64,000 nt of DNA from a virus. A program made the position numbers and the translations under genes. The notes beneath the pieces are model-generated. The model had not been told where the DNA came from. It did not search any database and was given only the letters and a program-made list of their open reading frames with translations. The stretch lies in the IMG/VR virus record IMGVR_UViG_3300009177_000006, positions 5,488 through 69,487 of that record; one strand, written 5' to 3'. Below, in pieces: positions 1,180 to 63,066 of this stretch; the stretch's first letter is position 1, and every line of letters starts with the position of its first letter.

Positions 1180-1237
1180 GTCTGTCTGGCGCGCCAGACA
1201 AAAATGCGCGCCAATCTTTTTATAGGAGCAAAACACT

Positions 1238-2368
1238 ATGGGACACGGATTGATTAGAAATTCTGTGACAGGCAAGTTCGATGCGATGATTCGCAAAGGT
1301 GCTTGGCATCATTTAGGTAATGTCGTGCAAGAGGCGCAGACCGCCGAGCAGACTATTATCGAGGCCGGTATGGACCATCTGATATCAAAGCGACAGCTTC
1401 AAATAAATGGTATCGATATTCCGGCTTGGGCGCTCTTTCGTGATGACATCTTTTATCACGATCCTCTAGCCGCACACATCGTCAACACAACCGAAGGTTT
1501 TCAGGTCATACAAAATCGGTTCATCTTTAGCTACCTCGATGCTCTGGTCGAAGGCGAAGGTAAGGCTCATTACGAGTCAGCCGGGATACTCAACAACGGC
1601 AAGCAGGTCTGGGCATTGGTTAACCTTGGCGTGTCGTTTGAAATCGGTGCGACCGGCGACCGCTTTGAGAACTACCTATGCTTCACCGAGGACCGCACAG
1701 GTCAACGCGCGGCTCAGTGCTTTATAACCTCGATACGTGTTGTCTGCGCTAACACCTACGAACGGGCATACGGTCAAGCCGGGACAGCCGTCAAATTCTA
1801 CCATCGAGGCGATATGACTCAGCGCATGATTGACGCCGCTGACTTGTTTACGGGCGTCACTCAGGACGTGAAGCTGTTAGAGGAAAAGCTAAACGTGTTG
1901 TCACATCGGTCGTTGAGTAAAGAGATGCTCGGTTCAGTGCTTGATGAGTTGTTCCCGCCGGTCAAAGACGAGACAAGCCGTCAGCAGAACAACCGTGAGA
2001 AAAAGCAACTCAACGTGTTAGACCTGTTCACCGACAACGATGGCAATATGTTTCCCGAGACAAAGGGAACGGCGTACAACCTGTTCAACGCTGTCACGAA
2101 CTACGTTGACCACGAAGCGCCTGTCAAGGTGACGGAAAATCGTATCGGTCGAACCGACAAGCAGATACGTGCCGAGTCCGCAATGTTTGGTGACGGTGCG
2201 AAATTCAAAATGTCGGCACTCGATTTGATCCTCGAAAAGACAGTCGGTGCAACGACTCGTACAGTCACGTACATCGACTTACACGGCAAGGAAATTAATG
2301 TTGAGGAACGAACGCTCGACAACTCGTCGCTCCTCGATGCCGTGCTTGAGAAAGGCGCTCAAGTCTAA
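1238..2368 (+). CDS. DUF932 / TIGR03299-like phage-plasmid protein
   Basis: AWHHLG, VIQN, YESAGILNNGKQVW, TSIRVVCANT, GTAYNLFNAVTNYVDH motifs. Confidence 0.85.
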   Translation: MGHGLIRNSVTGKFDAMIRKGAWHHLGNVVQEAQTAEQTIIEAGMDHLISKRQLQINGIDIPAWALFRDDIFYHDPLAAHIVNTTEGFQVIQNRFIFSYLDALVEGEGKAHYESAGILNNGKQVWALVNLGVSFEIGATGDRFENYLCFTEDRTGQRAAQCFITSIRVVCANTYERAYGQAGTAVKFYHRGDMTQRMIDAADLFTGVTQDVKLLEEKLNVLSHRSLSKEMLGSVLDELFPPVKDETSRQQNNREKKQLNVLDLFTDNDGNMFPETKGTAYNLFNAVTNYVDHEAPVKVTENRIGRTDKQIRAESAMFGDGAKFKMSALDLILEKTVGATTRTVTYIDLHGKEINVEERTLDNSSLLDAVLEKGAQV

Positions 2369-2448
2369 TCAAGCATAAACCGTCTGGCGTGTCGGCTCTA
2401 AGGCTTCTGTCTGGCGCGCCAGACAAATTTTTAACTAGGAGATTAACC

Positions 2449-2664
2449 ATGAAATACAGAGCGGAAGTTACAGGTAAAGGCGAGGACGTTTGGTCAGCCA
2501 ACGGCAAAGAGTACAACACCGAGCAAGAGGCAAAAGACTGGCTCGATGACTTAGGCTTTCGATGGACCGGCTACGATGCCTCGCGAGTTGTCACGGTCGA
2601 TACACCGCGACAAGAGGCGTTCGACGCGACTGATAGCCGTATCTATCAGAACTGGAGGCGATAA
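2449..2664 (+). CDS. hypothetical protein
   Basis: CTAGGAG RBS before ATG 2449 (downstream of the ORF-track start). Confidence 0.7.
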   Translation: MKYRAEVTGKGEDVWSANGKEYNTEQEAKDWLDDLGFRWTGYDASRVVTVDTPRQEAFDATDSRIYQNWRR

Positions 2665-2927
2665 TGTTTTTACCAACCTGCGCGTTTTTCAAAATCAGAC
2701 ACGGCGATTGGCATGGCGGCGTTGTCGTGTCAATCGTGCTCACCTTAGACAATCGTACCGCCACCGCCGAACGTCATATACCGGCTGAGCAATTACAGCT
2801 TTGGTTAGATATGAAAGCCGGGATAATGCACATGATGGATTTTCTGCAACGTAACCTCATGATGACGGCAATGGAAAAATGGTTGACTGACAATCAGCTT
2901 CGGCGCTACATCAAGGAGGTCGTGTAA
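2664..2927 (+). CDS. hypothetical protein
   Basis: Coupled to both neighbours (TAATG). Confidence 0.6.
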   Translation: MFLPTCAFFKIRHGDWHGGVVVSIVLTLDNRTATAERHIPAEQLQLWLDMKAGIMHMMDFLQRNLMMTAMEKWLTDNQLRRYIKEVV

Positions 2928-3205
2928 TGGCGCTCTTATTCAAATTGCAAATCTTACGTCCCGATGGTAATCAGGGGATACCACAAGACAGTCCCGATTG
3001 GCAGACGGTACGCGAGGCGGACAATGCGTTCGCCATACTCAAGGCACTCGTTGAGGATTTGAACGAGGACTTCCAAGACTGGCATGACGTTTACAAACGA
3101 GGCGACCTAAATACAATCGGTCAGGTCGTTCACACCGCAGACTTTTACTGGCGACTACAGGTTATCGATGAAAAAGAAAACTCAGTCTTTTACGGTTGTT
3201 CCTGA
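2927..3205 (+). CDS. hypothetical protein
   Basis: AAGGAGG RBS, coupled start. Confidence 0.65.
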   Translation: MALLFKLQILRPDGNQGIPQDSPDWQTVREADNAFAILKALVEDLNEDFQDWHDVYKRGDLNTIGQVVHTADFYWRLQVIDEKENSVFYGCS

Positions 3206-3491
3206 TTGGCCGGTTATCTGCTCAGAGATAGTTGACACCGACATATCAGATAAGGCGATTGTAAAACGTTACAAGCTTCCCGAGTTTGAGCGGATCGACC
3301 TTGACGGGTTTCTCAAAGACGCAGGTCTTAAACGAGGTTGTTGCGGTCGTTGGCACTGGTTAGACGAGAACTGTTATATCTGCGCTCTGACCGCTCCGAA
3401 TCTCAAGACTACGCATTACCATCTATGGCGGGTAAAACGTGGTCAAATCGCCTCTAATCGCCAGCAAACGGGTAATAAAGACGATGATTAA
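3168..3491 (+). CDS. hypothetical Cys-containing protein
   Basis: Fills gap in + operon; CCGRWH..CYIC motif. Confidence 0.5.
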   Translation: MKKKTQSFTVVPDWPVICSEIVDTDISDKAIVKRYKLPEFERIDLDGFLKDAGLKRGCCGRWHWLDENCYICALTAPNLKTTHYHLWRVKRGQIASNRQQTGNKDDD

Positions 3492-5070: not shown

Positions 5071-5139
5071 CAGACTGGCGCGTCAGCTTTGGCATTGTCT
5101 GGCGCGCCAGACAAAAACTAAAATCTAGGAGCAAATAAA

Positions 5140-8631: not shown

Positions 8632-8664
8632 ACGTCCTCTCTTTTGTCTGGCGCGCCAGACAAT

Positions 8665-11410: not shown

Positions 11411-11449
11411 AAAATTCTCCCCGTTTTTGTCTGGCGCGCCAGACAGTTT

Positions 11450-12177: not shown

Positions 12178-12214
12178 AAGCCTCCGTTGATTTTTGTCTG
12201 GCGCGCCAGACAGA

Positions 12215-15700: not shown

Positions 15701-18700
15701 CCGTTGACGTGGCAATGCCCGTTACGTTGTTATAGCTTGCGTTGACAAGATTCTGCGCCCTGTCCATCACTAACCCTTTGATTGGGATAGTCTCGGTTGA
15801 CCAACGCAGATCAATTTTAGAGATGACGCCTTGAGTCGTAACGACCAGAGCCGCATACCACGGCATCGGTCTATTACCGCCAGTACCAGTCGTATCAACC
15901 AGAGCGAGAAGTGTTTCGACTCCGTTGATGTCTCGCTTATAAGCGAATACCCAAGACGGCGTTCCGAGCAGAGCGTTCCTAAAGATGAACGTATCACCGA
16001 CAACGTATGTCCCGACTGACGTAGTTGTAACCGACAGGTTGTTGATAACATCAACCGTGCCGTCAGCTTTAAGGTGAAAGGCAAAAACAAACTGAGGAGC
16101 ACCGCCGCTTAAAGTCTGACTCTCAGCAACGCCGAAATACTGGTCAATGATTTTGTCTGGCGCGCCAGACAAATCGCTAAAGTTGATTGAACTAAGGTCA
16201 GTCAACATTGCCTGTGATAGCCAGACCGCAGAGTTCAAACCAGACGTGCCGGTTTTCGTAATCGAATTGTCAAGATTGATTTGACAGTTCGTCGGGTCAG
16301 ACCATTTCAGGCTTAAGGGTTTTACGAACGTGGCCTCGGCGTATGTGGCAGACAGAACGCCATTGTCACTAACTGCGTACACACGCCGAGTCACGGTATC
16401 GCCTCGGGCGGTTTCCGTCCAAAGCGAACTTGAAAGAACGTCACTAACAAAATTACCTGCGCCGTCAGTAATGCGATATCGATTGATGCCAAAGGTTGTC
16501 GAAGGTGTCCATGCCCAACGGATCGAAACGCCGTCAAAGACGTAAGCTAAACCAGTCGGAGGCGCCGGTATCGTCACAACACCGCTCACATTGAGCCGCC
16601 GAGTCAGTTGAGCAGTAAAGGCGATTGTTGAACCGGCTTGTGAGAAGGTCTGTACTCTAATCAGAGCGAGCGACTTGTTAGCCGGTATCAGTTCAAACGT
16701 GCCATGACCGTTGTCATCGGGAAAGACATCAATCAGCGTGTCAACCCAATCGGCAAATGCGTACAAGGCTAAGCCGGTCGATGCGTTCGCCGTGAACTCA
16801 GTAGTCGCCACACCGCCAATCGTCTTTGACAGCTTGAACGTTGAGCCTGACACGTTGACCACGTAATACGGAGTTTCAAAGCTTGCTCCCGGTACGTCAT
16901 TCCCATCGAGTGCCGCAACGACCAATAAAGGCGTTGAGCCTGACGGGATCAAAGACGGCGAGGCGACCGTAAAGAGATTCGTTGAGAACGTGTAACTGAT
17001 AACGTCAGTCAGCTTCGTTGTCAGGAACTTTCTAAAGACGCGACCTCGCCACGGTTGCACAAACTGAGGCAACGTTGAGATGAAATTGATATCGCCCGAT
17101 ATCGATGACACATAGCGGTTATCAGGCAACGGCTCAGTCGTTTCTACAAGCGTCATCGACTGCGCCGCACCGGGAGGCATATATTGATTCACCGCGACCG
17201 AGTTACTAGGAGGCATGACGCCACCGTGAGCCGTGTCGGAGTAGAAGTCTGGCGTGACGATTCTTAATTCGTAAGACCTCGTTTCGACATCACCAACGTT
17301 TAGTTTCTCGTCAGTGACTTGAGCCAAAGCAGGCGCTAAAGCTGTATACCCTGACTCGGGATCGATGACGTTAACAAACGCACCTTTACATACGGCAAGC
17401 GAGTCAAGAAACCCTTCCACCGTCCACCCAATATCGAGGTCAGCCGATAGAGTGGCGAACGTTTCGCCAATACGTTCCATTTGCGTTTGTTGCATAACGC
17501 CGTATTGGATTATCTGACCGAAGTCAATCAGCTTACCGCCGTTCGCTGCGCGCCTCGCTTTACGGTCGATGAACACATACTTCTTTTGTAAGTTCTCGTC
17601 ATCGTCATCACGGTAGACGTACCGCCAAAAGTTCGTGGTCAATCGGGCGTTCTGACGCTTCACCGTCATCTTGGCGACATTGACGGGACCGGCTGTAGGA
17701 TCGTTGTTAAAGGTAAAGCAAGGCGTCCTATCTGGCGAGGTCACGATACGTATCTGACCGTCAACATCGGCATACGCAACACCGGGACTCATACCGAGTT
17801 CCAGTTCAAACAAATCAGCCGCAGGTGTTGGCTGAGTAGCAACAAAGCCGCCCTGAAAACGTTTGACTGGTCGTGGCGGTACAGACGCCGCAGGTACAAG
17901 CTGTAACCCTTGTGACGGCGAGGACCACTTGAGTTGCATGAAGTACGGGTTAGAAATTGTCGATGTCGATTGTTGAACCTTAACCTCGATGTCGTATGAC
18001 GTACCGGCTACCAGATTCATCGTACCTGTCGGACTCGCAGGATATGCGCCAGACAAGATGAGTGAGCCGTTAATACGGACCTCTATCGTGTCATCGATGT
18101 TAGGCGCACTGAACGTGTATAACTCAGAGAATGACGGTACGATTGTCGCCGTAAATATTGCAGACCATCCCCACGGTGAAACACCGGCAAAGGGAGCCGT
18201 GCCGTTACCTGATAAATTGATGTTTGGGAACGTGGTTGCGACCGAGCCGGTTGTCCAGTTGACATCGCTGAAAAACTGACACGCCCACGATATCGGCAAG
18301 ACCGATGCGGCTACGCCTATCTGGTCAATGAAAGCTGAGGCGGTAAAGATGACAAAGTCAACGTAGAACGATGCAAATTTCTGAGTCTGGTTAATGCTGA
18401 CTGATGGTAAGGCAACGCCGTTTTTATACACGACGAATAGACCGGCCTCATAGACCATACGGACACGGTCACCGACAGCAACAGGAGCGATGACGGTATG
18501 TGTATTGCCGTCAGTGTACCAAAGTTGATTCGCTTCAAACTTAACGCCCTGACGGTTAGTCGGTGTACTCTCGCCACCGTTCGCCGTGTTAAAGTGCATC
18601 GCACAAGTCGTACCGTTCCAGACCAACTCACACGCCGCACGGCTCACACCGACGAACTGCGACGATACCGCCCACGCATCCCAAGCATTTGTTGCCGTGG

Positions 18701-19706: not shown

Positions 19707-19872
19707 ACTGGTTTTTTGTCTGGCGCGCCAGACATATCAAAGCTTTAAGGTGAAAAGAGCCTGATTGCCAACCGTCTGACGTGTCGATTGCTCGCGTTTA
19801 GAGGTCATCTGACCGTCTTTTGACGGGTTTTCGACCTATGACAAGGCTTGTCTATATCGAGCCGTCTACGGA

Positions 19873-21086: not shown

Positions 21087-24000
21087 TTAACCGTCCACTA
21101 ATTTCTGAGTAATAGTATCCATCAGACCAGAATCGTTGCCGTTGTGTACGCCCATACGTACTTTCATTGCTACACCGTGAGGCGATGCCTTTGCTATCAA
21201 GTCATCAGCCGCGTTCTCGTCATAGACCGCAACGACTGTGATATTAGGCGTGTTACCGCCACCTGTCGGCACACCGTTCACCGTAGGTCTACGCACGGTT
21301 GAATTGTAATTGTCTGGCGCGCCAGACAAATTGATGCCCGGGACTCCGACATCACGCAATCGCCTGTAGCCGCCAAGCGCCATTATCTGCGATTGATTAA
21401 TGACCGCCTCGTTACCATGTACAACTATTGGCATCGCTCCCGAGGTCATACCCGTAAACATCGATACGCCACCTGTCGCAAATGTCGGCACGACTTTCTC
21501 GTCAAGAGCCGTAGCCGCCGCTTGAGCCATATCAGCCTTTTGACCTTCTTGCTTCAACGTATCGAGCAATGCGTTTATCTGACCGAGTTTCTCTTGAGCA
21601 AGACGTTTACCCGGACCTGTTTTCAGCGCCGCGACTTGTTGCGAATATTGATCCCTGATTGCCGTACCTTGTTGCAACGCCGATGCACCGTCTATCTTGT
21701 ACGTCTTGACTTGGTCGATGAGTTGCTGTATCTGCGTCATCGCATCGCCTGACAATTGGTTGACCTGCTTCTTTTCCTGCGCTCGGCGTTTAGACCGACC
21801 GAACAGATAAGACGCGAGCATCAGACCGCCAGCAATCGCAAGACCGATACCAAACGTTGCCGCACCTGACAAACCGAATAGACCGGCTGTCGAACCAAAG
21901 ATACCGCCCGTTGTCGCACCTGATACCGAGCCTGATGTAATCAAGCCGGTCAACAACGTTCCACCTATCGCACCGCCAACACCGCCAAGCACCTGACCGC
22001 CTATCGACTGACCGCCAAGACCGACACCAAGCGAGCCGCCAACCATCGCACCGGCAAGCTGAGTCTGAAAAGCTTTGCTCGATAACAGACCTCGTATGCC
22101 GGTCAACTGACGCGCGCCACCGCCAAGCGTCTGCATACCGCCCATACCGATACTGAACGGACCTGCGCCGATTGATGTCGGAGCACCGCCTAGCGAGATA
22201 TCACTAGAGCCGATACCGCTCAGACCACCGCCAAGACCAAGTAAACCGCCAAGACCGCCACCGCCACCGTAACCTGATGTTGACGGACCGCCAAAGATAT
22301 TGCCGCCGCCGATACCGACACCGCCAAAGCCTGACAATGACGGTACGACCGCACCGGCTGATGACAAGAGAGAACCGCCGCCAGACGATACAGACGAACC
22401 CGCGAGGTTAGAGCCGTTCATACCGCCGAATAGAAAGTTGGTGAACATATTACCGATGCCACCGCCGCCACCTGACCTCGCACCGCCAGACGATAAGGCA
22501 GGCGTGTCTAAGCCGAATAACGCTCGAAAGCCTTTGTTGACGATTAGCTTAATGAACGAGGACAGTAAATCGTGAACGGCATTAGTGAGCAGTCCCATCT
22601 TCGGCAAAATCTTATCAAGACCTTTGTCAATGACATCGTAGCCCGACTGGATCAATCCTACCTTGAAATCGCCCATCGCCTCAGTCACACCTTTTTGTGA
22701 CGCCATGAACTCAAGCACCTTTGTATCGGCTTGAGACGCCGAATATTTAGTTTGCTCTTGTATGTCTAGTATCGCCTTGTTTCGGGCAATGATTGCGTCA
22801 CTCTCTTTGTATCGGAGGTCAACGATATCTTTCAGTAATGCGGCCTGTATACGTAACTCTTGATTAACGTCAACGGTCGAATACTCGTCTTGTAACGCCG
22901 TGATTTGCTTCTCAAGATTGAACCGCTCACTGACCGCCTCGTTACGTCTACGCTCGGTCACAAAACCGGCATCGGAGTTCTGCTGTTCCAAGACAGACAG
23001 GTCACGCTCGATATCTTTACGCTCGTTGACCTGCTCGGTGTACGATTGTTGCAGTTTTACGTATGCCTCTTGCTCGGTGTTACGCTTACGGGCAACTTCC
23101 AAGTCAATCGCGTTCTGTGTCTGAGCCTTAGTTAGCAAGGCGATTTGGTGTTGAACGATTGTACTGATTTCCTCATCGGCATTTCGTTGTTGCAGGATCG
23201 TGTCGGTTATCAACTCCTCAGTATTGAGCGAGTCTTTCAGACGGGCGATGTATTGCTGGTCAAGGTTAGGACGTAGACCTACGCTCGTGCCAAGCTGTGC
23301 AGGCTGAGCCGTGAGGTCTGAGCGATAGGTATCACCGATACGCTTGACGAGAGCCGTAGCCCGAAGCTTACGTTCTTCCTCTGCGAAGTCGTTGATATCG
23401 ATACCGCCAATTGACGTTTTAATATTCGACTCTGCACCGCCGAAAAACTTGGTCAACGCTTGAGTACGAGCATTACCCGTCATCCGCAACAAGTGTTGAG
23501 CAATCGTGCCGTGCTGGTCTTTAGCCGTTAAGGGTACGTTCGGGTTACCGCCTAAGACCGTGCGATACAGGTCTGCTAATGATGCACCGGCTGTCTGCTT
23601 GCCAACCTGACCGAATCGGTCTTGTAGAAACGGCACGACCGAGTTCATCAACTGACTTGAGAACGTGAGATTCTGACCAACGTGATACTTGCTGTACTCC
23701 TCAGGACCGAACTGCACTAAGCCGGTATACGCATCGCCTGCACCGCCTTTAATGGTTGGCGAGAAAGTACCCTTAGTTTCGTAAGCGATGATTGTTGCGA
23801 GGTCAAGCGGTTTGATTCCCAGACGAGCCGCCGCTTCGATGAGTGTTTTAGCATCACCACTCGGCTCGAAAATCTTTTTAGCTTTCTTCGCCGCATCGCC
23901 TTCCAAGTCCTCAGTGTTACCCGGATTTTTTAGACCTAGAAACGGATTGTCACCTTGCGGCTGATTGGTAACAGCGGCACGGTTAGTAGCAAAGTCTTGC

Positions 24001-25529: not shown

Positions 25530-25567
25530 AGTGTTTTGTTTTTTGTCTGGCGCGCCAGACAATGCTC

Positions 25568-27121: not shown

Positions 27122-27571
27122 TTAGACTGGAACATCAGTGTTACTATCTGGCGGAACTGTACCGTAATCGCCGGGAGGTATCGGCATAGTGTGTAAGCCG
27201 TGTTCTGGTTGCGGCGATGTGTTCGGGTCTTTCGTCTGACCTTCTTTCTGCTGATTCTCATACGGCGCGTTCAGGTCAATCGGCTCGGGAGTCGGGGGAT
27301 CGCCTAAGACCGCCTCAGACTCAGCCTTAAAAGCGGCGTCTAATTCAGCATCGACAAGGACGTTGTTCTCGTCCCAAATCGGCGTTGGCGATTGTGGCGG
27401 CTCAGCCGTTCCACCTACCGCCTCAGTGTCTTTAACCTCAGACTCTTTCGGTGCTGGTTGACTCGGCGTTGACTGCGTAATTGATTTGTCTGGCGCGCCA
27501 GACAAACTTGACGAACTGCTTGGCGATGCTGTCGGCTCGAAATCGCCCGTTGATTCATTTTCTACTGCCAT
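27122..27571 (-). CDS. acidic, Pro/Ser-rich disordered protein
   Basis: GGGAGG RBS before ATG 27571. Confidence 0.65.
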   Translation of the reverse strand: MAVENESTGDFEPTASPSSSSSLSGAPDKSITQSTPSQPAPKESEVKDTEAVGGTAEPPQSPTPIWDENNVLVDAELDAAFKAESEAVLGDPPTPEPIDLNAPYENQQKEGQTKDPNTSPQPEHGLHTMPIPPGDYGTVPPDSNTDVPV

Positions 27572-30229: not shown

Positions 30230-30269
30230 AAAGGTTCATTAGTGACTGTTTGTCTGGCGCGCCAGACAA

Positions 30270-35357: not shown

Positions 35358-35597
35358 TTAAGTTCTAGGCTCAAACACGTTCTTCGCCAGACAAGATACG
35401 CACCGAAAAACTGTGCGATTTGTCATCATCATATTACCGTTGATAAGGTTTCTCTTTTCGATGATACCGATACAACGAGTACAGCAACGGCAACGGGCAA
35501 TGTTACCGTCTACCACAATCGGCGCTGGCATATCAGGCCGAATGTTTTTGTCTGGCGCGCCAGACAATTTCGGGACGTTGTTTACACGAGAATCCAT
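35358..35597 (-). CDS. small Zn-ribbon protein (Com-like)
   Basis: RCRCCTR..RCVSC..N. Confidence 0.55.
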   Translation of the reverse strand: MDSRVNNVPKLSGAPDKNIRPDMPAPIVVDGNIARCRCCTRCIGIIEKRNLINGNMMMTNRTVFRCVSCLAKNVFEPRT

Positions 35598-36583: not shown

Positions 36584-37600
36584 TTAGTGAACTCCCGTAA
36601 TACCGTTATAAACTAAGAACATTTGAGTCTTGCCGTCTACCTGTATCGTCAACACCGTTAGACCATCTGACAGGAACAAAACATCAAGAGTGTCGTTGTC
36701 GGCTAAGATACCTGTCATCTCGCCAATACCGGCTATATTGCCACTCAATAACCTAGCGATTACGAGCGATCCTAGGCCGTTTGAGACACTTTGAACGTGA
36801 CCTGATAGGTTACGCTCAACTCGTAAATTGCCCACGGTCAGAGCGAGGCCGTTCGGGTGTCCTGACAAGATAACGTTATTACCTGCGCCGATACCGCCAA
36901 GCACCGTTGAGTGACCGGCTGGCGTTCCTGTCAGATAACGAGTCAATAAGATTAACCCGTTAGTGATACCGTGACTGTCTGGCGCGCCAGACAAATATCG
37001 TTCAACCCTGATGACGCCTGATACAAGTCCCTGACCTATCGGATGACCAGTTAGATTGCGTGTCAGCTTTATGACGCCGCCACAATTACCTAGCCCCGCA
37101 ATCGAGCCCGACAAGTTACGTTGAACCAGTAAACCGCCGCTTGCCGAGCCGATTGCGTTCGCCTGACCGAGCAACTTACGGGTAATCTGGCATGAGCCTG
37201 ACACAGTACCCAAACCAGACGGAGCGCCGGTCAAGACTTTGAGGATAATAAAACTTCCGCTAACGCTACCAGAGCCAGCCACCGTGCCTAGTAGTTTTCG
37301 TGTGACGTTGAGACTGCCTTGAGCGTTAGCGGATGCGAGTACATTACTAGTCAACCTTCGTTCAACCCTGACTGTACCAGCGACTATGCTCGTGCCGGTT
37401 GGTTGACCAGTAATGACGCGCCGAACATTCAAAGAACCGCCGACCGTTGACGTGCCGGTTATTGATCCCGATAAAAGCTTTGTACTCGGCGCCTCGAAAA
37501 ACTCGTTGGCAACGATGTACGTGTTATCGCCTGCCGAGTGTTTGACAAGCGATGAACTGGTTAATGTAAACGATGGTTCACGGCGAAAGAAACTAGCCAT
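36584..37600 (-). CDS. repeat-containing virion fibre protein
   Basis: About 20-aa repeats (L-G---G---V-G-L-V-R). Confidence 0.65.
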   Translation of the reverse strand: MASFFRREPSFTLTSSSLVKHSAGDNTYIVANEFFEAPSTKLLSGSITGTSTVGGSLNVRRVITGQPTGTSIVAGTVRVERRLTSNVLASANAQGSLNVTRKLLGTVAGSGSVSGSFIILKVLTGAPSGLGTVSGSCQITRKLLGQANAIGSASGGLLVQRNLSGSIAGLGNCGGVIKLTRNLTGHPIGQGLVSGVIRVERYLSGAPDSHGITNGLILLTRYLTGTPAGHSTVLGGIGAGNNVILSGHPNGLALTVGNLRVERNLSGHVQSVSNGLGSLVIARLLSGNIAGIGEMTGILADNDTLDVLFLSDGLTVLTIQVDGKTQMFLVYNGITGVH

Positions 37601-38982: not shown

Positions 38983-39026
38983 TGGTTGTTCTCCTGTGGT
39001 TGAAATTTGTCTGGCGCGCCAGACAT

Positions 39027-40778
39027 CTACTGAATGACTGTGGTCGTGTCCTCAGGCTCAGCCGGGACATTGTCGGCGTCATAAAGATTAGTAAGCAACT
39101 CGTCATCAATCGAGTCTAAGAATTTCTCGGCGTCATCGAGTTCGCCAAGTGTCGGTTGACGCTTCTTAAAAAAGATGTCAGCGAGCAATGTACGGATCGA
39201 CCGACCTTCGCCGGGATTTGGGTTTTCCTGTAAGGCGTTGTTTGCGGCAATGGCTGTACCGGGAGCCATTTGGGTAACTCGCGGTTCTGGTTGGTCTGCC
39301 ACTTCTTTGTCTGCGCCAAGCTGTGCGGCCTCGTCTTGAGATATCCAGCCACGGTCATACTCAAGCGCCGCTCGTTGTGCTCTCATCAACGCGACTTGCT
39401 CATCACGCATTTGTTCAGCCGCTCGGAACTGAGCGAACCTTGCCTCAACGTCAACGAGATACCCGTAAGCTTGCATCGCCAAGGTAAATAAATCCTCTAA
39501 GGCGTTTTCGACAGGATGCTGTACAGACTCGATACCTTTGGCGTATATCTCCCACTCGCGATTAGCTTGCGTTTCTGAGCGTGATTGGTCAGTGCCCATT
39601 AGGATCGGCATCGTCTTTAACGCCCTGACCGCCATACGCTCGATACACTTAAAGAGCGCGTCTATCGCGCCGAGTGAATCAGACGTGACCGAGCCGACCG
39701 GCTTATTGACCTTAACCGTATCAGGATGCACATATGTATCGTCAGGCTCTAGTGAGGCATACGCCGCCGTGACATCGTCAACGAGCGATTGCATCCACTC
39801 AGTAACTTTTTTCGGATTGCCTTCAATGTCTGTCGGCATTGTCTCGCGCAACTTGTCAAACAGAATTTCGACATCGAGGCGCAAGTAGCCTTGATGCTGT
39901 ACGACACGTTTCGTATCGCGCAACACTGCCATTAAAAAGACGGCGAGGAAAAAGGCAGATGAGCAAAGACTATGACCTTCAATCGAGTCAGGGTTAGGAT
40001 GAACCGGCACGTAGCGTACCGTTGGGATATTAAGACTCACAAAGCCGCCAAGACGCGGTCCGCTCGTCATGCCGTCTTTTAATTGCCGTTGACCGAAGTC
40101 CCAACACTGACCTCGTAACTCGTCAAACTTGCGCCGGTAGGTAAGCGTTGCGGGATCGGGAGTCGCGATGTCTACGAATTCATACCCTGCGTCATCTAAC
40201 ACGAGTTCCATTAAAAACGAGCCACGCAGAAAAATCGTTTTATAGACACGGTCGAAGAACACACTCAACGCGCCGTTGTACGCCGACAGCTTCGCCAGTA
40301 TGACATCGTCCATATACGCCTGAGCGACTTCGTCAAGGTCTTTCGTGCCGGGATGAAAACATTTGACCTCAAAGCCGGGATTACACAACAAGAGAAAGTC
40401 CCAGAGCGCCTTTGATATCTCGGGCGAGATGTCCGCAAGTATCTCGGACATCTGCTCAAAGGTCATATTGCGAAAGCTGTTAAAGTCAAGCGTCTGCCCA
40501 AAACCAAAACGCTGTACCCAACGTTGCTTGGCAACAATGTCCCATTCTGTAAAGTTTGGAAAGGTGTCTAAGGTTTCGACGGACTGGCGACCGCCGGTCA
40601 GGTCTTTCTTGGCGACTGCACCGGCCGGTGCGTTTGGTGTGTCTCGGGAACTGTCTGGCGCGCCAGACAAACCTTTAACAACGGCTTGAGGAAAACGCGG
40701 CGCTGTCTCTGATTGCTCAGCCGATGAAGCTTTATCTTTGCGTGATAGTGTGATGCCGAATGGCAGACGTATTTCCAT
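39027..40778 (-). CDS. portal protein
   Basis: 583 aa directly after TerL; YDRGWISQDEAA C-terminal portal motif. Confidence 0.85.
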   Translation of the reverse strand: MEIRLPFGITLSRKDKASSAEQSETAPRFPQAVVKGLSGAPDSSRDTPNAPAGAVAKKDLTGGRQSVETLDTFPNFTEWDIVAKQRWVQRFGFGQTLDFNSFRNMTFEQMSEILADISPEISKALWDFLLLCNPGFEVKCFHPGTKDLDEVAQAYMDDVILAKLSAYNGALSVFFDRVYKTIFLRGSFLMELVLDDAGYEFVDIATPDPATLTYRRKFDELRGQCWDFGQRQLKDGMTSGPRLGGFVSLNIPTVRYVPVHPNPDSIEGHSLCSSAFFLAVFLMAVLRDTKRVVQHQGYLRLDVEILFDKLRETMPTDIEGNPKKVTEWMQSLVDDVTAAYASLEPDDTYVHPDTVKVNKPVGSVTSDSLGAIDALFKCIERMAVRALKTMPILMGTDQSRSETQANREWEIYAKGIESVQHPVENALEDLFTLAMQAYGYLVDVEARFAQFRAAEQMRDEQVALMRAQRAALEYDRGWISQDEAAQLGADKEVADQPEPRVTQMAPGTAIAANNALQENPNPGEGRSIRTLLADIFFKKRQPTLGELDDAEKFLDSIDDELLTNLYDADNVPAEPEDTTTVIQ

Positions 40779-42474: not shown

Positions 42475-42603
42475 TATGCCTCTTTGTCTGGCGCGCCAGA
42501 CATTTTTTGAATATTTTTTCGGGCGCTAAAACCTTGATTTACTTCATTTATAACATTATTAAAAAAAAATGTGCAAATTAACGCCTTTTTACCCTTAAAA
42601 CAG

Positions 42604-45479: not shown

Positions 45480-45515
45480 CGTGTCTGGCGCGCCAGACAA
45501 AATCGGAGGATCGAA

Positions 45516-46583: not shown

Positions 46584-46605
46584 AATTTGTCTGGCGCGCC
46601 AGACA

Positions 46606-47937: not shown

Positions 47938-48393
47938 TTACTCCTCCGTTTTGTCTGGCGCGCCAGACACACCGTTCACCGAATTGTCATACGACAATCG
48001 CGCGTGTTCCATTTTCCTCGCTGACCTGACCTCAGAGGTCAGCCGCTCCGAACAAAGGTCACAGACGGGCGCATACGGCTCGCGTGAGCACGTACAGCCT
48101 TGAGCCTTACGAGCCGCTAACTCAAGTTCCAGAGATACCGTAGCCGGGACTTTAACAACGCCGCCGTAATCGACCATGCCTTTAGGACCGATGCTGGCGA
48201 GGTTATAAGTAGACCGTTTGACGCGGCGCGTTATCATCGTGGTCTGAATCGGACCGTTAACCTCAAAACGATAACCTAACAGCATTCCCATCAGGTAACG
48301 TTCGACTGATTGATGATTACTAAAAATACGTGTGACATCGTTTTGAATATCGGGATCGTCAGTCTCTATCTGAATGTATATCTGCGTACTCAT
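47938..48393 (-). CDS. hypothetical protein
   Basis: AAGGAG RBS; CTC..CDLC. Confidence 0.65.
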   Translation of the reverse strand: MSTQIYIQIETDDPDIQNDVTRIFSNHQSVERYLMGMLLGYRFEVNGPIQTTMITRRVKRSTYNLASIGPKGMVDYGGVVKVPATVSLELELAARKAQGCTCSREPYAPVCDLCSERLTSEVRSARKMEHARLSYDNSVNGVSGAPDKTEE

Positions 48394-49048: not shown

Positions 49049-49764
49049 TACTCAGTGCCTTCTAGTTGTTGTTTACGCATCGCCGCCAGTTCGTCGATGT
49101 ACTTGAGCATCTGCTCCTCGCTCATCGAATCGAGGTCAACGTTCTCGTCAAGCAGACTGACATTCTCGGTAGACATATCGGCAGACATACGTTGCAACTT
49201 AATACCGGCTTCGATGAAGCCTTTGGCGTCTCTCGGATGCTGTATAAAGTTGAGGATCGTCAACGTGTCAATAACCTCGCCTGACTTTGCGGTGACCTGC
49301 GCTCTGACCTCACGATTGAGTACGGGTAACTCTAAAAGCTTTTTGCCTCGCTCAATCAAAGCTGCGCCGACCGAGTAACCTTCTTCTCTGATATCTAGTC
49401 GGCGCTTGGTCCACTCACGCGTTCGCTCTTTGATGAGTTTAGCTTCTTCTCGCTCAGCCATCATCTCAAGCTGATTTTGATAAAGCCGATATCGCTCTTT
49501 CCAGTCGTGCCGGTCGTGCCAACGGTAGATGAGCGATGAACTCTTTTTCAACTGTCTTGCGACCTCATTAGCACCGCCTTCTTTACGAGATGCCAGTTCG
49601 CAATACAGCTTAAAAGCCTCGTATGCTTCGACCGATTCTTTTTCTCGGCGCTCAAGTGGAGTGATGTCTGGGACAGCCTTTAGATTCGGGCGATTTTCCA
49701 CCGCTGTTTCGTCATCCGTGATTGATTGTTTTTTGTCTGGCGCGCCAGACATTTCCTTATTCAT
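49048..49764 (-). CDS. putative terminase small subunit (HTH)
   Basis: ESVEAYEAFKLY..VARQLKKS..IYRW..HDWKER pattern of phage TerS-like HTH; LDSMSEEQM C-terminus. Confidence 0.55.
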   Translation of the reverse strand: MNKEMSGAPDKKQSITDDETAVENRPNLKAVPDITPLERREKESVEAYEAFKLYCELASRKEGGANEVARQLKKSSSLIYRWHDRHDWKERYRLYQNQLEMMAEREEAKLIKERTREWTKRRLDIREEGYSVGAALIERGKKLLELPVLNREVRAQVTAKSGEVIDTLTILNFIQHPRDAKGFIEAGIKLQRMSADMSTENVSLLDENVDLDSMSEEQMLKYIDELAAMRKQQLEGTE

Positions 49765-50640: not shown

Positions 50641-51023
50641 TAAGTCTTTCTCGGTCCTAAGACCGCGTCAGCTATTTTCTCGCCTTCCCGACTGGCGTCT
50701 AAATACCAGTTAGCAGTCAGTGGCCGATTGTTGTCTGGCGCGCCAGACATTTCGACTTTCATACGGTCGTGTATGGCATTGATAAACTTCTCTGCCTGAT
50801 ATTGACGGCGAAAGTAAAAATGGTCAGGTTGACCGGCGTACTTTGGTAACTCGGTGAAGTCAAGCGTTGCGTCTTGCCGATAGAGTTTAATAGCATTCTC
50901 GGCGGCGTTACGGACCTCCTCAAGTATCTTGATAAATCGTTTCTTATATCCCGGCGCCATTGGTTGCCAGTCAATCGTATGTTGCAAGTTATTGATTAGC
51001 TGATTGATTTGTAGCATCGACAT
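50640..51023 (-). CDS. hypothetical protein
   Basis: GGAGG RBS; coupled. Confidence 0.6.
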   Translation of the reverse strand: MSMLQINQLINNLQHTIDWQPMAPGYKKRFIKILEEVRNAAENAIKLYRQDATLDFTELPKYAGQPDHFYFRRQYQAEKFINAIHDRMKVEMSGAPDNNRPLTANWYLDASREGEKIADAVLGPRKT

Positions 51024-51956: not shown

Positions 51957-52370
51957 TTACTCCTTTTTGTCTGGCGCGCCAGACATTGTTACCGATGACC
52001 TCAGTCCGCGATAAAACGGATTATTGCCGCGATGAGTTGGTAAAACGATGGTAGGATTTTCCGCCTCGTCTTTTTGCTGTGCCTCACGCTTTGCAAGAAT
52101 TGATGCCTTGTGTAACTCATACAATTTTAACTCCTCAATGAGATGTTGAACTGACGAATGACACGCACACTTTAGACAAATGCGTTGCAACCTATCGTCA
52201 ACGGTTGACAGTATACTCCCCTGTACGCCGCACCGCTTACCTTTACGTATTGGTACAGGGCAAGGTGACGTTGGCATTTCCGGTCGAAAGGTCACGACCG
52301 GCTCGGGTTTAGACCGGCTTAGTACAGCCCGTATTCGTTCAATAATCGCTTTGATGATTTTCCGGTACAT
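51957..52370 (-). CDS. hypothetical protein
   Basis: GAGG RBS; Cys cluster. Confidence 0.55.
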   Translation of the reverse strand: MYRKIIKAIIERIRAVLSRSKPEPVVTFRPEMPTSPCPVPIRKGKRCGVQGSILSTVDDRLQRICLKCACHSSVQHLIEELKLYELHKASILAKREAQQKDEAENPTIVLPTHRGNNPFYRGLRSSVTMSGAPDKKE

Positions 52371-53852: not shown

Positions 53853-54015
53853 GTGTTTTGCTCCTAGTATTTTTGTCTGGCGCGCCAGACACGCATTCAA
53901 GACATCGGTAACGAGATTCGGATTCTCGGTACAGGCGCTTAAAAGATTTACAGCCTTGGCAGTAGCCGTCTAGTTCGACCGGCTCGGGTAATTTTTTCAT
54001 CATCTCACGTTCCAA
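53830..54015 (-). CDS. small Zn-finger protein
   Basis: CQGC..RCLEC. Confidence 0.5.
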   Translation of the reverse strand: MEREMMKKLPEPVELDGYCQGCKSFKRLYRESESRYRCLECVSGAPDKNTRSKTHEQSIET

Positions 54016-55316: not shown

Positions 55317-56095
55317 AACAATCCTCCTAGGTTTCCTTCTGATTTGTCTGGCGCGCCAGACATTTTTGACTCCGCGTAATTCTCGGTCACGTCACGCCAA
55401 TAGTCGGCGTCATCGTATACCGTAGGATCGTCAACGATACCGGCATTGTGTATCGCCTCTAATCGCTCAACACACGTACCGCAACGACCACAGTGATTCT
55501 CACCGCCTTTGTAGCATGACCACGTCATATCAAGCGGTAAGCCGACAGTCGCCGCACAACTCGCAATCAAAGTCTTATCGTAACAGGCGAACGGTGCGAG
55601 GAGGTTGAGCCGGTTGTAATCGCATAACTCTAACGCCGCATCGAGCGCGTTAATGAACGACTCTCGGCAATCGGGATAAATCGCATGGTCGCCAACGTGA
55701 GCCGCAAACGCTACGTTCTCGATGCCGTTTGACAATGCGTACCCGCCAGCTATCGCCAACATAATCATATTCCGATTCGGCACGACAGTCTGCTTCATGT
55801 TGTCTTGACTGTAATGACCTTCGGGTACGGCTTGGTCAGATGTCAGCGAGGACCGGCTGAGGATCGATGCCAAGTTACTGAGGTCAACGACCGTATTCTT
55901 GACCTTGAAAAACTCGGCAACCTTTTTCGCCGCGAGTAACTCTTTCGAGTGACGTTGACCATAGTCGAACGATATCGTTTCAACCTCGTTATGGTTGTGT
56001 AGTAAGACGCCGACCATTGCAGATGAGTCAAGACCGCCCGATAAAAGAGCCAGGACTTTTTGATTCTTAACCATCAACCTTGTGTTCCAGACCAT
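55313..56095 (-). CDS. queC: 7-cyano-7-deazaguanine synthase
   Basis: SGGLDS, FDYGQRH, VPNRN, YPDCR, TWSCY..HCGRCGTC. Confidence 0.96.
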   Translation of the reverse strand: MVWNTRLMVKNQKVLALLSGGLDSSAMVGVLLHNHNEVETISFDYGQRHSKELLAAKKVAEFFKVKNTVVDLSNLASILSRSSLTSDQAVPEGHYSQDNMKQTVVPNRNMIMLAIAGGYALSNGIENVAFAAHVGDHAIYPDCRESFINALDAALELCDYNRLNLLAPFACYDKTLIASCAATVGLPLDMTWSCYKGGENHCGRCGTCVERLEAIHNAGIVDDPTVYDDADYWRDVTENYAESKMSGAPDKSEGNLGGLL

Positions 56096-58060: not shown

Positions 58061-58329
58061 CGCCTACCTTTGTCTGTTTGATATTGCTCGATATCCCAGA
58101 TGACCGCTGTCAGGTTGTCGCGTTGCTCATCTGTCAGCTTTTCATCGAACGCAACGATGCGTTGGACTCGGTCTTGAAAGTCATCGAGTAAGGTGTCAGG
58201 ATCGATGCCGACCGAGCGCAGGTAAGCGGCTGTCTTTTCCTCAGACCACTTAGCGACCTCGTCAACGATTGCGTTACAACTGTCTGGCGCGCCAGACAAA
58301 TCTACCGGCTTATGTGGTCCCAAAACCAT
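58057..58329 (-). CDS. hypothetical protein
   Basis: ORF in minus-strand operon. Confidence 0.55.
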   Translation of the reverse strand: MVLGPHKPVDLSGAPDSCNAIVDEVAKWSEEKTAAYLRSVGIDPDTLLDDFQDRVQRIVAFDEKLTDEQRDNLTAVIWDIEQYQTDKGRR

Positions 58330-58819: not shown

Positions 58820-58836
58820 GGTTCTTGTGTTGATAA

Positions 58837-59030: not shown

Positions 59031-59069
59031 ATGACGAAAAATCGTCATCGAATGACGAAAAAGCGTCAT
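59031..59069. promoter_or_regulatory. tandem palindromic operator pair ATGACG-N6-CGTCAT
   Basis: 59031-59048 and 59052-59069, 21-bp period, between divergent promoters. Confidence 0.6.
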
Positions 59070-59168
59070 GCTACTTAATATAGGTATTAACATATATATA
59101 AACATATACTGTCGTTCGTTTTCTTTTTTAAGACCGCTCCGCGAGGTCAGCCGGTCAGCTTAACGGAA

Positions 59169-59197
59169 TTGATTTATGTTTTAATCTGCGGTACAAT
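59169..59197 (+). promoter_or_regulatory. rightward sigma70 promoter
   Basis: TTGATT-17-TACAAT. Confidence 0.6.
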
Positions 59198-59860: not shown

Positions 59861-60063
59861 TGTCTGGCGCGCCAGACAAAAACTAGGAGCAAATCAATGT
59901 TATTAAAAATCTGTAAAGAATGTTTACCGTACTGGCCGTTTGAGTCACGAGTTAAGCAAATCGTCCCGGCTGAGCAATGTGAATGCTCGATGCACGAAGC
60001 TAAGCAAACGTCAACCGATGACGAGGTTGAACACGTCACACCAGACAACGCGACACGAGTATT

Positions 60064-61635: not shown

Positions 61636-61707
61636 TGTCTGGCGCGCCAGACAAACTTGCCAAAGGGGATATAATTTAACCGGCTAACAGCCTAGGAGAA
61701 AAACAGA

Positions 61708-62796
61708 ATGCCACGTAAAAAGAAAGATGAGGTCACACCGAGCGTTGACGCCGCCGAGCAAGCGAAAGAGTTTCTCGCTAAACACGGCGCAGACGTTGAC
61801 ACGTATGAAGGTCAGATAACCAACGAGCCTGACGGCAACGACTTGTTGAACGATTTGTTTGAGGATGCCGAGAACGACTTTCGCGATAAGCTTATGGCGT
61901 TCCAAGAGCCGATACCGAAAGAGAAAATCAAGTCGCGTGTCGGTTGGTCTGACCGTAGCGGTAACGAGCACAGAGTTGACTATGTCGAATGGCATTATGT
62001 CGCAGACCGGCTCGATGTCATTGCGCCGCTGTGGTCAAGCGAGATTAAGTCACTCACGTTCTCAAACGGTATGGCTATCTGTATACTCGCTCTGACGATT
62101 GACGGCGTTACTCGTGAAGGTTTGGGTATCGGAGGCGCTGACTCTGAAACGGGACTTAAGAAAGCTGAACACGATGCGCTCAAACGAGCCGCAGTAAAGT
62201 TCGGCGTCGCTCGTGAGTTGTACAGCAAAGAAGGCGAGATAGATGAGAGAGCCGGTGAACCGACTGGTTATCGTCAACGAGGTTCACGGTTCGCCGAAAA
62301 TGACCCGAACACGCCACCGAGCAATCCTGTTGCCGCGAGCGCAGGCGAGATACTCACCGATAAACAGGAAGGTGCGATTGCCGCGATATGTCGCGGTCTG
62401 GGCATCAATCCTGACGAGGAGTGTCAAGCGGTTTTGAAGTGCGAGGTCAAGCAGTTGTCACGTAAGTCGGCGTCATGGTTTATTACCTACCTCGATAAGC
62501 CTGCGCTCACACCGCGACCTCGCTCAGCCGTATCGCCAGACGTGGCAGATGTGATACCGACACAACCGGCTCAACCGGCGTCTGTCAATCAAGGTCGAAT
62601 GATCGAAATGCGACAGGTCAACTCACTTCGGATGCTGTGCAACAAGCTGTCGTTGAGTGAAGGCGAACAGGTCTTAAAGTTCACCGCCAATCGTACCAAC
62701 CAAATCAAGGATATGTCGGTTGCCGAAGGTCAGGCGATGTTTGAAGCATTGTCGGTCAGTGACCAGACGGTTGTACCGATGAGGCAGACAGCCTAA
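61708..62796 (+). CDS. Rad52/Rad22-family (Sak-like) ssDNA annealing protein
   Basis: YVEWHYVADRLD, LTIDGVTREGLG, KKAEHDALKRAAVKFGVARELY. Confidence 0.9.
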   Translation: MPRKKKDEVTPSVDAAEQAKEFLAKHGADVDTYEGQITNEPDGNDLLNDLFEDAENDFRDKLMAFQEPIPKEKIKSRVGWSDRSGNEHRVDYVEWHYVADRLDVIAPLWSSEIKSLTFSNGMAICILALTIDGVTREGLGIGGADSETGLKKAEHDALKRAAVKFGVARELYSKEGEIDERAGEPTGYRQRGSRFAENDPNTPPSNPVAASAGEILTDKQEGAIAAICRGLGINPDEECQAVLKCEVKQLSRKSASWFITYLDKPALTPRPRSAVSPDVADVIPTQPAQPASVNQGRMIEMRQVNSLRMLCNKLSLSEGEQVLKFTANRTNQIKDMSVAEGQAMFEALSVSDQTVVPMRQTA

Positions 62797-62832
62797 ATTT
62801 TTCCTGACGTAGTTTGCTCCTATGTCAAAAGC

Positions 62833-62871
62833 AAAAAGCCGGTCGAACCTTTTACGGTCTGACCGGCTTTT
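62833..62871. terminator. bidirectional intrinsic terminator
   Basis: AAAAAGCCGGTC...GACCGGCTTTT. Confidence 0.7.
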
Positions 62872-62959
62872 CGTTTACCCTTTCTTACCCTAGGAGGTTG
62901 GCTGGAAAGATGTCAGTCGAAGTAGCGGAGAAAATCAAAAACACTGACCATCTACGAGC

Positions 62960-62988
62960 AAAATAGCAGATATTTTTTCGTGCGTCAA
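62960..62988 (-). promoter_or_regulatory. leftward promoter facing the terminator (sRNA candidate)
   Basis: TTGACG-17-TATTTT with extended -10 TG. Confidence 0.45.
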
Positions 62989-63066
62989 GTATTGATTTTA
63001 CCTAGGTTTTGTCTGGCGCGCCAGACAAATTACGAGGATCACTGACGGCTCTAACCCTTAATACGG

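Follow-up and report, generated by a model that had tools for sequence, protein, structure and literature searches.

A perfect 18-bp palindrome, TGTCTGGCGCGCCAGACA, recurs throughout the genome of the phage represented by IMG/VR virus record IMGVR_UViG_3300009177_000006. The record is 69,487 bp long and, given its 123-bp terminal repeat, is a circular assembly; the window analysed here is a 64-kb stretch of it (bases 5488–69487), and coordinates of the phage are window positions unless marked as genome positions. Thirty exact copies lie in the window, from 1183 to 63010, and two more at genome positions 1594 and 4543 bring the whole record to 32. By a modest balance of probability, we infer that these copies are genome-wide docking sites on double-stranded DNA (dsDNA) for a two-fold symmetric, sequence-specific phage protein. 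The array, its evenness, the single frame in which it runs through genes, one insertion and its conservation in relatives were observed directly, and the fold of a candidate reader was modelled. We favour docking because the sequence is invariant beyond any structural need, including in relatives whose flanking proteins are only 39% identical, and because lineage-specific words of one architecture, such as we find in more distant phages, are what a co-evolving reader would produce.

The 30 mismatch-free copies reported in the original prediction were recovered at the same coordinates and far exceed the roughly 0.02 copies expected by chance in the window (100 dinucleotide shuffles; largest count 1). 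Allowing one to three mismatches added zero matches in the window, and the numbers of places in the whole genome at 0, 1, 2, 3, 4, 5 and 6 mismatches are 32, 0, 0, 0, 2, 3 and 27; each copy is either perfect or absent. We also compared the phage with contigs from two sequencing runs, both labelled as rhizosphere metagenomes. The Logan assembly of run X1 holds a single 69,394-bp contig with 0 differences across the 19.9 kb compared, and run X2, from a different study, holds identical low-depth pieces, one of which (46275–46685) spans the copy at 46588. As X1 is possibly the source sample, independent support comes from X2 and the relatives only. Every apparent joint in the run contigs has a palindrome copy or repeat D8 at its start or end, and we read these joints as alignment jumps between repeats. 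As far as contigs show, an adapter or assembly artefact is rejected by the X1 contig, the X2 pieces and, as a stronger argument than the X1 assembly, the presence of the motif in relatives from other data sets.

Copies are spread evenly. The 32 circular gaps have a mean of 2168 bp (standard deviation 907, minimum 767, maximum 4233) and a coefficient of variation (CV) of 0.42, whereas random placement gives a mean CV of 0.97 and matched the observed regularity in 0 of 200,000 trials; a largest gap of at most 4233 bp has a probability of 4e-5 under random placement. The regular spacing of about 2 kb originally claimed therefore stands up to a formal test. One copy, at 16154, lies near the middle of a 7-kb fibre-like gene, 3959 and 3563 bp from its neighbours, and evenness thus belongs to the array rather than being a by-product of gene size.

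With gene calls from a crude longest-ORF (open reading frame) scheme mended by eye, and with each copy oriented by local gene direction, 18 copies of the whole record are intergenic and 14 intragenic (Table 1). Frame analysis reproduced the earlier split of 16 to 14 within the window and confirmed the list of interrupted genes: portal, protease/scaffold, tape measure, a 2320-aa fibre-like gene and queC. Intergenic copies start 0–6 nt past the preceding stop or stand within a longer gap, and the next start codon follows 4–54 nt downstream, mostly 10–27 nt (distances by eye). The 14 intragenic copies are all translated in a single frame of the three possible, as (L/M/V)-S-G-A-P-D, an outcome with a chance probability of 6e-7. 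Four of them stand near the 3' end of a gene, within its last 8–15 codons (the ORF that precedes the terminase gene, ORFs 47938–48393 and 51957–52370, and queC), three fall in codons 5–16, one covers portal residues 37–42, and six are internal, one each in the fibre-like, tape-measure, protease/scaffold, 338-aa and 127-aa genes and in a Ser/Pro-rich linker. In the tape measure, LSGAPD is an exact six-residue insertion relative to the ortholog of a distant relative, G002 ('...GINLSGAPDNYNS...' versus '...GASI------YSPS...'), and insertion of a ready-made 18-bp unit is therefore how at least some sites originated. Where leucine precedes the motif its codon is TTG in eight cases and CTG in none, against 56% TTG predicted from codon usage (P 0.01); the DNA word thus constrains codon choice beyond the peptide.

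A tendency to A-runs 3' of the site on the coding strand, noted at the outset, is real: on the sense strand +1 is A in 29/32 copies and +2 in 26/32, and both are A in all 18 intergenic copies. The mirror-image upstream T's are mildly enriched (15/32 and 14/32). Because the upstream flank usually consists of a stop codon or coding sequence, context and not a strand-specific reader may account for the asymmetry.

The motif is also held at orthologous places in other genomes. Our scans of viral_contigs, genome_contigs and metagenome_contigs covered records other than the phage's own. Thirteen loci in genome_contigs carry the exact 18-mer as single copies (two of these loci lie on one contig, 1.3 kb apart), as do 23 loci in metagenome_contigs, one copy each; viral_contigs gave one unrelated contig with the exact 18-mer and eight single matches to the 16-mer. 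A search for close relatives with the large terminase found no locus in viral_contigs and one weak match among 50,697 phage records. A host-genome repeat such as an uptake sequence is rejected, the 18-mer being never multi-copy in the scanned collections. Among the metagenome loci, one of 1134 bp (L026) has the identical 18-mer between homologs of both genes that flank copy 30251, each at 39% protein identity; a second (L030) pairs one copy with a 42% homolog of another phage gene; and two others (L036 and L040), 82% identical in DNA, both contain the motif. Locus L024 has one standard copy and a further one (180–197) whose second base is swapped with its partner (CTCTGG...CCAGAG); palindromy survives, as either quasipalindrome correction or selection for symmetry would lead one to expect.

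Intragenic sites leave a trace in homologous proteins. Of the 16 nearest portal homologs (46–55% identity), 12 have SGAPD at a matching point of an N-terminus that is otherwise unalignable, and 14 of the 19 nearest protease/scaffold homologs (45–86% identity) have it at residues 275–294; none of 103 more distant portal homologs among the matches listed has it. The residue before SGAPD is L, M, V, T, K, Q, S or A, all of which can be encoded by a codon with a final G; as far as peptides tell, the core common to the clade is therefore probably the 16-mer GTCTGGCGCGCCAGAC. Judged from these comparisons, the sites are old and held in place, and a recent burst of a mobile element is ruled out. The search for the 18-mer in relatives and candidate hosts that the original prediction had proposed thus showed that relatives retain the motif, or its peptide, at orthologous positions, and found no multi-copy array in a host.

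More distant relatives carry palindromes of their own. Among 66 IMG/VR loci retrieved with a portal alignment, the phage's 18-mer (up to three mismatches) occurs in none. The complete 95.9-kb genome G003 instead has 22 exact copies of GTCACGTYRACGTGAC and 46 sites at two mismatches or fewer, with a mean gap of 2.1 kb and a CV of 0.56 (0/20,000 random trials as regular), and the complete 69.1-kb genome G002 has 10 sites at two mismatches or fewer of GTCGGACGCGTCCGAC (CV 0.47, P 0.009), which are mostly intragenic; the intragenic ones read S-D-A-S/P-D in the same register as SGAPD. In G005 (72.1 kb) we counted 13 TTCCGCC-NN-GGCGGAA sites versus 0 for a control pattern, and loci L043, L061 and L076 contain further palindromes. 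The words of G000, G002 and G003 share the architecture GTC-N10-GAC. In G003 the central dinucleotide is the sole asymmetric part of the palindrome; in sense orientation it is CA at 18 and TG at 15 of the 33 sites with clear gene direction. CA and TG centres are the same base-pair step in dsDNA but two different loops in RNA, which is our main reason for proposing a two-fold symmetric reader of dsDNA.

A different kind of repeat occurs in relative G008 (locus L091, 13731–19715), where six to eight copies of a GGGAGCCCGG-N-GACGGGCTCCC hairpin with GAAA, GCGA or GAGA loops are clustered and unevenly spaced; it looks like an RNA-level element.

What might read the palindrome? The product of the gene at 57005–57718 matches the ParB-like family PHROG 620 (3.4e-26). 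Folded from the single sequence it gave a useless model (predicted local distance difference test, pLDDT, 37), whereas a 64-sequence alignment gave a model of pLDDT 86, whose best Foldseek matches are all ParB, KorB or Noc. VIA-align placed it on ParB (Z 8.3 over residues 34–108) and on KorB (Z 7.7, root-mean-square deviation 2.5 Å, 101 residues aligned over 37–172), Z values that are middling by the tool's own caution; the KorB alignment spans the N-domain and the helical domain. By this model, it is the sole protein of the genome with a fold known for genome-wide palindrome reading. A profile of its subfamily found one clear member each in G003 (19137–19859, E 6e-8) and G002 (64768–65637, E 6e-6), both also recovered by hhalign (probability 91%, E 1e-6 for each), and one member in G005. 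The G002 gene (locus L111:4768–5637, minus strand) itself holds one G002 palindrome, read TSDASD in a linker. We regard it as possible, though short of probable, that the ParB-like protein is the palindrome reader.

In the mechanism that we propose, each docking site would serve the surrounding 1–2 kb and selection would then keep the gaps even; a bound site acting on its kilobase-scale surroundings would account for both a minimum (0.77 kb) and a maximum (4.2 kb) gap. A new site would arise by insertion of a ready-made 18-bp copy and would persist only where 18 bp are tolerated, either immediately behind a stop codon and before the next ribosome-binding site (RBS), or in-frame in a flexible part of a protein, where a tolerated copy would read Ser-Gly-Ala-Pro-Asp. 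The bound protein might silence, compact, protect or mark the DNA. Our preferred guess is a coat or roadblock of the KorB or stoperator type, acting to silence or organise the chromosome as a whole; without a cytidine triphosphate (CTP) motif, a static coat, a bridge or a roadblock would be equally possible.

Several observations weigh against this proposal or against the candidate reader. The arginine-rich CTP-binding motif (box II) is not present in the ParB-like protein, which has GEGATRG where Spo0J has GERRYRA and whose subfamily consensus is AGNG..EAA, and KorB-like sliding by it is accordingly doubtful. The Pfam ParB_N and HTH_ParB models have no match among the G002 or G003 proteins, a blank that is not decisive because the subfamily profile did find members there. 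Across 16 portal relatives, a subfamily match occurs in five of six with an array (at least six copies) versus three of ten without, a weak association (Fisher one-sided P 0.06, two-sided 0.12) among genomes that are related, many of them from records 60–85% complete, with G002 and G003 searched more permissively. The repeat-bearing G008 has no subfamily match. Mycobacterium phage Rosebush encodes a 29%-identical ParB-like homolog in the same operon and has no iterated palindrome in its first 50 kb. The position of the ParB-like gene at the head of a DpdA/preQ0 operon suggests a DpdB-like job instead. As to the sites themselves, the AA flank follows the direction of transcription in 29/32 copies, which a purely symmetric reader would not need unless stop codons override the upstream TT, and zero degenerate copies is unusual for an operator array; G003 has 22 exact copies and about 24 variants. 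Even so, a binding site for a dimeric protein of the parS, NBS or operator kind, as first proposed, is the best-supported reading, given the invariance, the lineage-specific versions, the G003 centre and the recurrence of the ParB/KorB subfamily; it remains putative. A packaging or ejection signal, also raised at the outset, is neither favoured nor disfavoured by these observations.

An alternative that we consider unlikely is an RNA element: a 7–8-bp GC hairpin followed by AA that insulates, processes or stabilises the cistrons of long polycistronic messenger RNAs. The hairpin would shield the upstream message at its 3' end and keep the next RBS single-stranded, and hammerhead ribozymes would do the same job in one operon. 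Much of the placement agrees with this. By eye, 22 of 32 copies have a start codon 4–54 nt downstream together with either a preceding stop 0–6 nt away or a position in the last 15 codons of the prior gene; the sense-strand AA is as frequent as given above; and the hairpin, at about -10 kcal/mol, leaves the Shine–Dalgarno (SD) sequence unpaired. The ribosome-binding block AAAACTAGGAGCAAA (family D10) follows palindrome and ribozyme-like element alike, copies occupy the kind of position that hammerhead-like elements hold in the operon at 42.7–44.4 kb (Hammerhead_II match at 44305–44370), and G008 repeats its hairpin with three different loops. However, a hairpin needs neither 18 fixed bases, nor a fixed self-complementary CGCG centre, nor identity between genomes at 39–55% protein identity, and kilobase-scale evenness, a copy halfway along a 7-kb gene and sites that in G002 are mostly intragenic have no RNA rationale. 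Nor does an RNA structure predict a G003 centre that is CA or TG whatever the gene direction. Intrinsic terminators are rejected because the hairpin is followed by sense-strand A (+1 A in 29/32) and not by a U-run. Sigma-70 promoters are likewise rejected: TATAAT at 16 nt accompanies only the copy at 61636 and a weaker TAAATT the copy at 19717, with nothing at the other 30. We also set apart local switch operators, since the 18-mer is distinct from the ATGACG-N6-CGTCAT repeats of the divergent region 58873–59170.

It is improbable, in our judgement, that the palindromes are target or loading sites for DpdA and the ParB-like protein, at which 7-deazaguanine is written or the machine is loaded and whose sparse, even marks are read as self by a tracking enzyme. 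In its favour, the ParB-like and DpdA genes overlap and head a minus-strand operon (52892–57718) in the order ParB-like, DpdA, QueC, a 108-aa ORF, QueD, QueE, a small ORF and FolE, with its named genes in the same order as gp1–gp6 of Rosebush; the preQ0 operon is complete and predicts 7-deazaguanine in the DNA. Bacterial DpdA is described as needing a ParB-fold ATPase, DpdB, as modifying a G inside a palindrome and as marking about 1/1000 nucleotides (PMC10164549), and by our arithmetic 64 half-sites per 139 kb of single strands come close to that density; a constraint on the maximum gap would also suit a tracking reader. Yet arrays are present in G002, G003, G005 and G012, in none of which DpdA was found, and are therefore independent of it; Rosebush has the operon without an array in its first 50 kb; and the phage DpdA enzymes described in the accounts available so far use motifs of two or three bases. 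A more elaborate version, a two-part machine in which the ParB-fold protein docks at the copies and hands DpdA to the DNA, so that 7-deazaguanine is placed about once per kilobase of strand as a self tag read by a tracking nuclease or helicase, seems to us more improbable still. In phages, 7-deazaguanine is known as a bulk substitution; if the two-part machine were real, it would be the phage counterpart of the sparse bacterial Dpd mark.

We give very little credence to two further ideas. In one, the copies serve as recombination joints: being identical 18-bp islands on the borders of genes and domains, they would let diverged co-infecting relatives swap modules by means of an Erf-like annealing protein. 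Copies do lie at gene borders and in protein linkers, the word is identical in relatives, and the phage encodes an Erf-like single-strand annealing protein, a RusA-like resolvase and a Gam-like protein. A low-complexity-filtered alignment of the fibre-like protein to G002 ended at residue 1170, just before the copy at 1180, but the unfiltered alignment continues beyond it, and both flanks are homologous at comparable sites (L026, portal, protease). A second-order benefit to future recombinants, moreover, cannot fix all 18 bases or explain even spacing, and the available text on the Cluster O phages records few if any repeats at points of rearrangement (PMC4351075). The earlier suggestion of a joint for module shuffling is thus unsupported: copies stand at orthologous places with homologous genes on both sides, and no gene-content breakpoint could be tied to a copy. 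Copies 42485 and 45482 do flank the ribozyme cassette, as had been pointed out, but their 3.0-kb gap is ordinary for the array. The other idea, equally hard to credit, is a selfish miniature palindromic insert, spread by copy-and-paste with no benefit to the phage. It would fit the clean 18-bp insertion (at least one) relative to an ortholog and the perfect-or-absent pattern, and the single frame could stem from purging of the two protein-disrupting frames; but the places are conserved across deep divergence with no decayed copy, and even spacing with a 767-bp minimum gap is not predicted. Repetitive extragenic palindromes (REPs) with their REP-associated tyrosine transposases (RAYTs), and palindromes resembling miniature inverted-repeat transposable elements, come with a cognate transposase, imperfect copies and intergenic positions only. 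No transposase or RAYT-like gene turned up among about 70 phage proteins scanned, the copies are perfect and 14/32 lie inside genes, and this class is rejected.

The docking-site array has partial counterparts among described systems. Plasmid RK2 carries 12 KorB operators. KorB is loaded at palindromic operators, from which it slides as far as 1.5 kb to reach promoters (PMC11790492), and the likeness lies in palindromic sites dispersed over a replicon of about 60 kb, a ParB-fold reader (here a candidate only) and a kilobase-scale reach; by our model, the phage, too, encodes a ParB-fold protein with an N-domain and a DNA-binding domain. Arrays read by ParB, KorB or Noc have palindromic sites within 13–18 bp (18 bp here). 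Unlike KorB on the plasmid RK2, however, the phage protein has no arginine-rich CTP motif, the sites are three times as many and many are intragenic, and no KorA-like or ParA-like partner was found in the phage. Stoperators of phage L5 occur genome-wide in tens of copies, mostly in short intergenic gaps beside stops or starts. Here, too, tens of copies lie many of them in short gaps beside stops and starts, and one flank feature follows transcription; but L5-type stoperators are asymmetric and oriented with transcription (as stated in PMC4351075), whereas in this phage a perfect palindrome forms the core and orientation is confined to the AA flank. Neither an integrase nor an L5-type repressor was found (for the integrase, among about 70 proteins scanned, with many ORFs lacking a match), so that the stoperator comparison first drawn holds only as a loose fit.

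The closest description in print that we found is the 17-bp dyad repeat of the Cluster O mycobacteriophages, of which Corndog has 34 copies with invariant arms in about 70 kb, with a dimeric binder predicted and no function assigned (PMC4351075). Both phages have tens of dyad copies with invariant arms, in Corndog in the genome of a siphophage of about 70 kb, located in intergenic gaps, at 5' gene ends and within genes without being tied to promoters, and their half-sites are similar (TGTTCGG there, TGTCTGG here). In our recount the 34 Corndog sites are crowded on the right arm with a CV of 1.07, in contrast to 0.42 here; the Corndog centre of 3 bp is variable; and the available text of that report mentions no frame rule or insertion. 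Shared descent finds no support, as no phage protein matches Corndog at E <= 1e-3 by tblastn; the profile of the ParB-like subfamily has no match in Corndog. Our literature search, which covered papers apart from their supplementary files, found none with the motif or with evenly spaced phage palindromes. New here are the quantified evenness common to three diverged lineages, the absolute invariance, the single frame and the origin by insertion, and, as far as sequence comparison goes, an apparently clade-wide conservation of position and a recurring stand-alone ParB-fold subfamily as candidate reader.

Table 1. Copies of the 18-bp palindrome in the window, with the candidate reader gene and the DpdA gene.
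Feature	Position	Strand	Context
Intergenic copy	1183..1200		3 nt past stop of 487-1179 (Gam-like); 37 nt before ATG of 1238-2368
Intergenic copy	2408..2425		SD and ATG 23 nt downstream; N-terminal only if GTG at 2389 is the start
Intergenic copy	5096..5113		After helicase gene 3439-5070; ATG 26 nt downstream
Intergenic copy	8645..8662	minus-strand genes	2 nt past stop; 13 nt before ATG of 7945-8631
Intergenic copy	11428..11445		4 nt past stop; 17 nt before ATG at 11410
Intergenic copy	12195..12212		2 nt past stop; 17 nt before ATG at 12177
Intragenic copy	16154..16171	minus	2320-aa fibre-like gene 12744-19706; LSGAPD, SGAPD at residue 1180
Intergenic copy	19717..19734		10 nt before ATG of 2320-aa gene
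Intragenic copy	21311..21328		Tape-measure gene; LSGAPD
Intergenic copy	25544..25561		6 nt past stop; 14 nt before tape-measure ATG
Intragenic copy	27487..27504	minus	171-aa ORF 27122-27637; Ser/Pro-rich linker; LSGAPD
Intergenic copy	30251..30268		1 nt past stop; 11 nt before ATG; site conserved in relative L026
Intragenic copy	33489..33506	minus	Protease/scaffold-like gene 33052-34338; LSGAPD at residue 279
Intragenic copy	35549..35566	minus	Codons 10-16 of 79-aa gene 35358-35597
Intragenic copy	36976..36993	minus	338-aa gene 36584-37600; LSGAPD
Intergenic copy	39008..39025		1 nt past portal stop; 25 nt before next ATG
Intragenic copy	40652..40669	minus	Portal gene 39027-40778; residues 37-42
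Intragenic copy	42485..42502	minus	Last 8 codons of 89-aa ORF 42474-42743; 10 nt before large-terminase ATG
Intergenic copy	45482..45499	plus-strand genes	After terminator-like hairpin; ATG 16 nt downstream
Intergenic copy	46588..46605		Abuts TGA stop; ATG 4 nt downstream; spanned by X2 contig
Intragenic copy	47952..47969	minus	Last 9 codons of 151-aa ORF 47938-48393, SGAPD frame; ATG 13 nt downstream
Intragenic copy	49734..49751	minus	Codons 5-10 of 238-aa gene 49048-49764
Intragenic copy	50732..50749	minus	127-aa gene 50640-51023; MSGAPD
Intragenic copy	51968..51985	minus	Last 8 codons of 137-aa ORF 51957-52370; ATG 14 nt downstream
Intergenic copy	53874..53891		SD and ATG 21 nt downstream
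Intragenic copy	55345..55362	minus	Last 15 codons of queC 55313-56095
Intragenic copy	58281..58298	minus	Codons 11-16 of 90-aa gene 58057-58329
Intergenic copy	59861..59878		Abuts TAA stop; ATG 18 nt downstream
Intergenic copy	61636..61653		Abuts TAA stop; sole copy with TATAAT at 16 nt
Intergenic copy	63010..63027		
DpdA-like DNA transglycosylase	56067-57008	minus	PHROG 887, 1.9e-50; start overlaps end of ParB-like gene
Candidate reader, 237 aa, ParB/KorB fold (modelled)	57005-57718	minus	First gene of DpdA/preQ0 operon

Apart from the array, the phage encodes HK97-type head genes, a DnaB-like helicase, an initiator-like protein, RusA-like, Erf-like and Gam-like proteins, an HNH endonuclease and a SNF2-type helicase; no RNA polymerase was found among the roughly 70 proteins scanned. 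The 238-aa product of 49048–49764 has weak PHROG matches to a terminase small subunit and to a DNA-binding protein. The plus-strand operon at 42761–44370 has intergenic elements with hammerhead-like cores, showing CTGATGAG or CTGACGAG in repeat family D9 at 42776, 43567 and 43902; the elements hold a palindrome-type position past the stop and ahead of the RBS. Rfam Hammerhead_II matches 44305–44370 at 32.7 bits (E 4.7e-4), under the gathering score of 37, and the window has 0 Rfam matches at gathering score. The ribosome-binding block of family D10, in full AAAACTAGGAGCAAA(T/C), is found at 5116, 42813, 43186, 43939, 59874 and 63121.

The divergent control region 58873–59170 contains two ATGACG-N6-CGTCAT inverted repeats and is probably, from its sequence, a local genetic switch; the product of the adjacent minus-strand gene (58469–58873) has by eye a ribbon-helix-helix-like N-terminus. 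A second dispersed motif, asymmetric and about 30–38 bp long (families D8, D15 and D16), occurs at 3435, 10546, 19785, 31198, 36756, 46938 and 52811, one copy standing in the gap just upstream of the fibre-like gene, and could represent a class of promoters. A non-coding gap at 48528–48664 contains short tandem and interleaved repeats (family D12) that are iteron-like and could be an origin. Outside the phage, eight of the loci with the exact 18-mer (L009, L011, L014, L020, L028, L032, L037 and L041) are high-GC bacterial contigs in which it stands right after a terminator hairpin and shares a GGATGAATCTGGGCACTGG-like tail; among the eight are contigs of Gammaproteobacteria and Burkholderiales genomes assembled from metagenomes. 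Rfam gave 0 matches in four of these loci (L009, L020, L028 and L037). The bacterial 18-mer with its tail may mark where a mobile element ends or serve as an operator; it seems to have no connection with the phage.

Published descriptions of dispersed dyad repeats in phages go back to at least 2015, with no function assigned. This array offers an unusually clean test case, with one 18-bp word in 32 identical copies, measurable evenness, a single candidate reader and relatives whose words differ. Its reading-frame rule amounts to a DNA-level signal written through proteins, SGAPD appearing in 14 unrelated ones, and a frame rule of this type is a sequence signature by which such arrays could be located elsewhere. 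If a ParB-fold protein does tile the phage chromosome from evenly spaced sites, this would reveal a new layer of phage chromosome biology, be it silencing, compaction, protection or marking, and would extend long-range action of the ParB/KorB type from plasmids to viruses.

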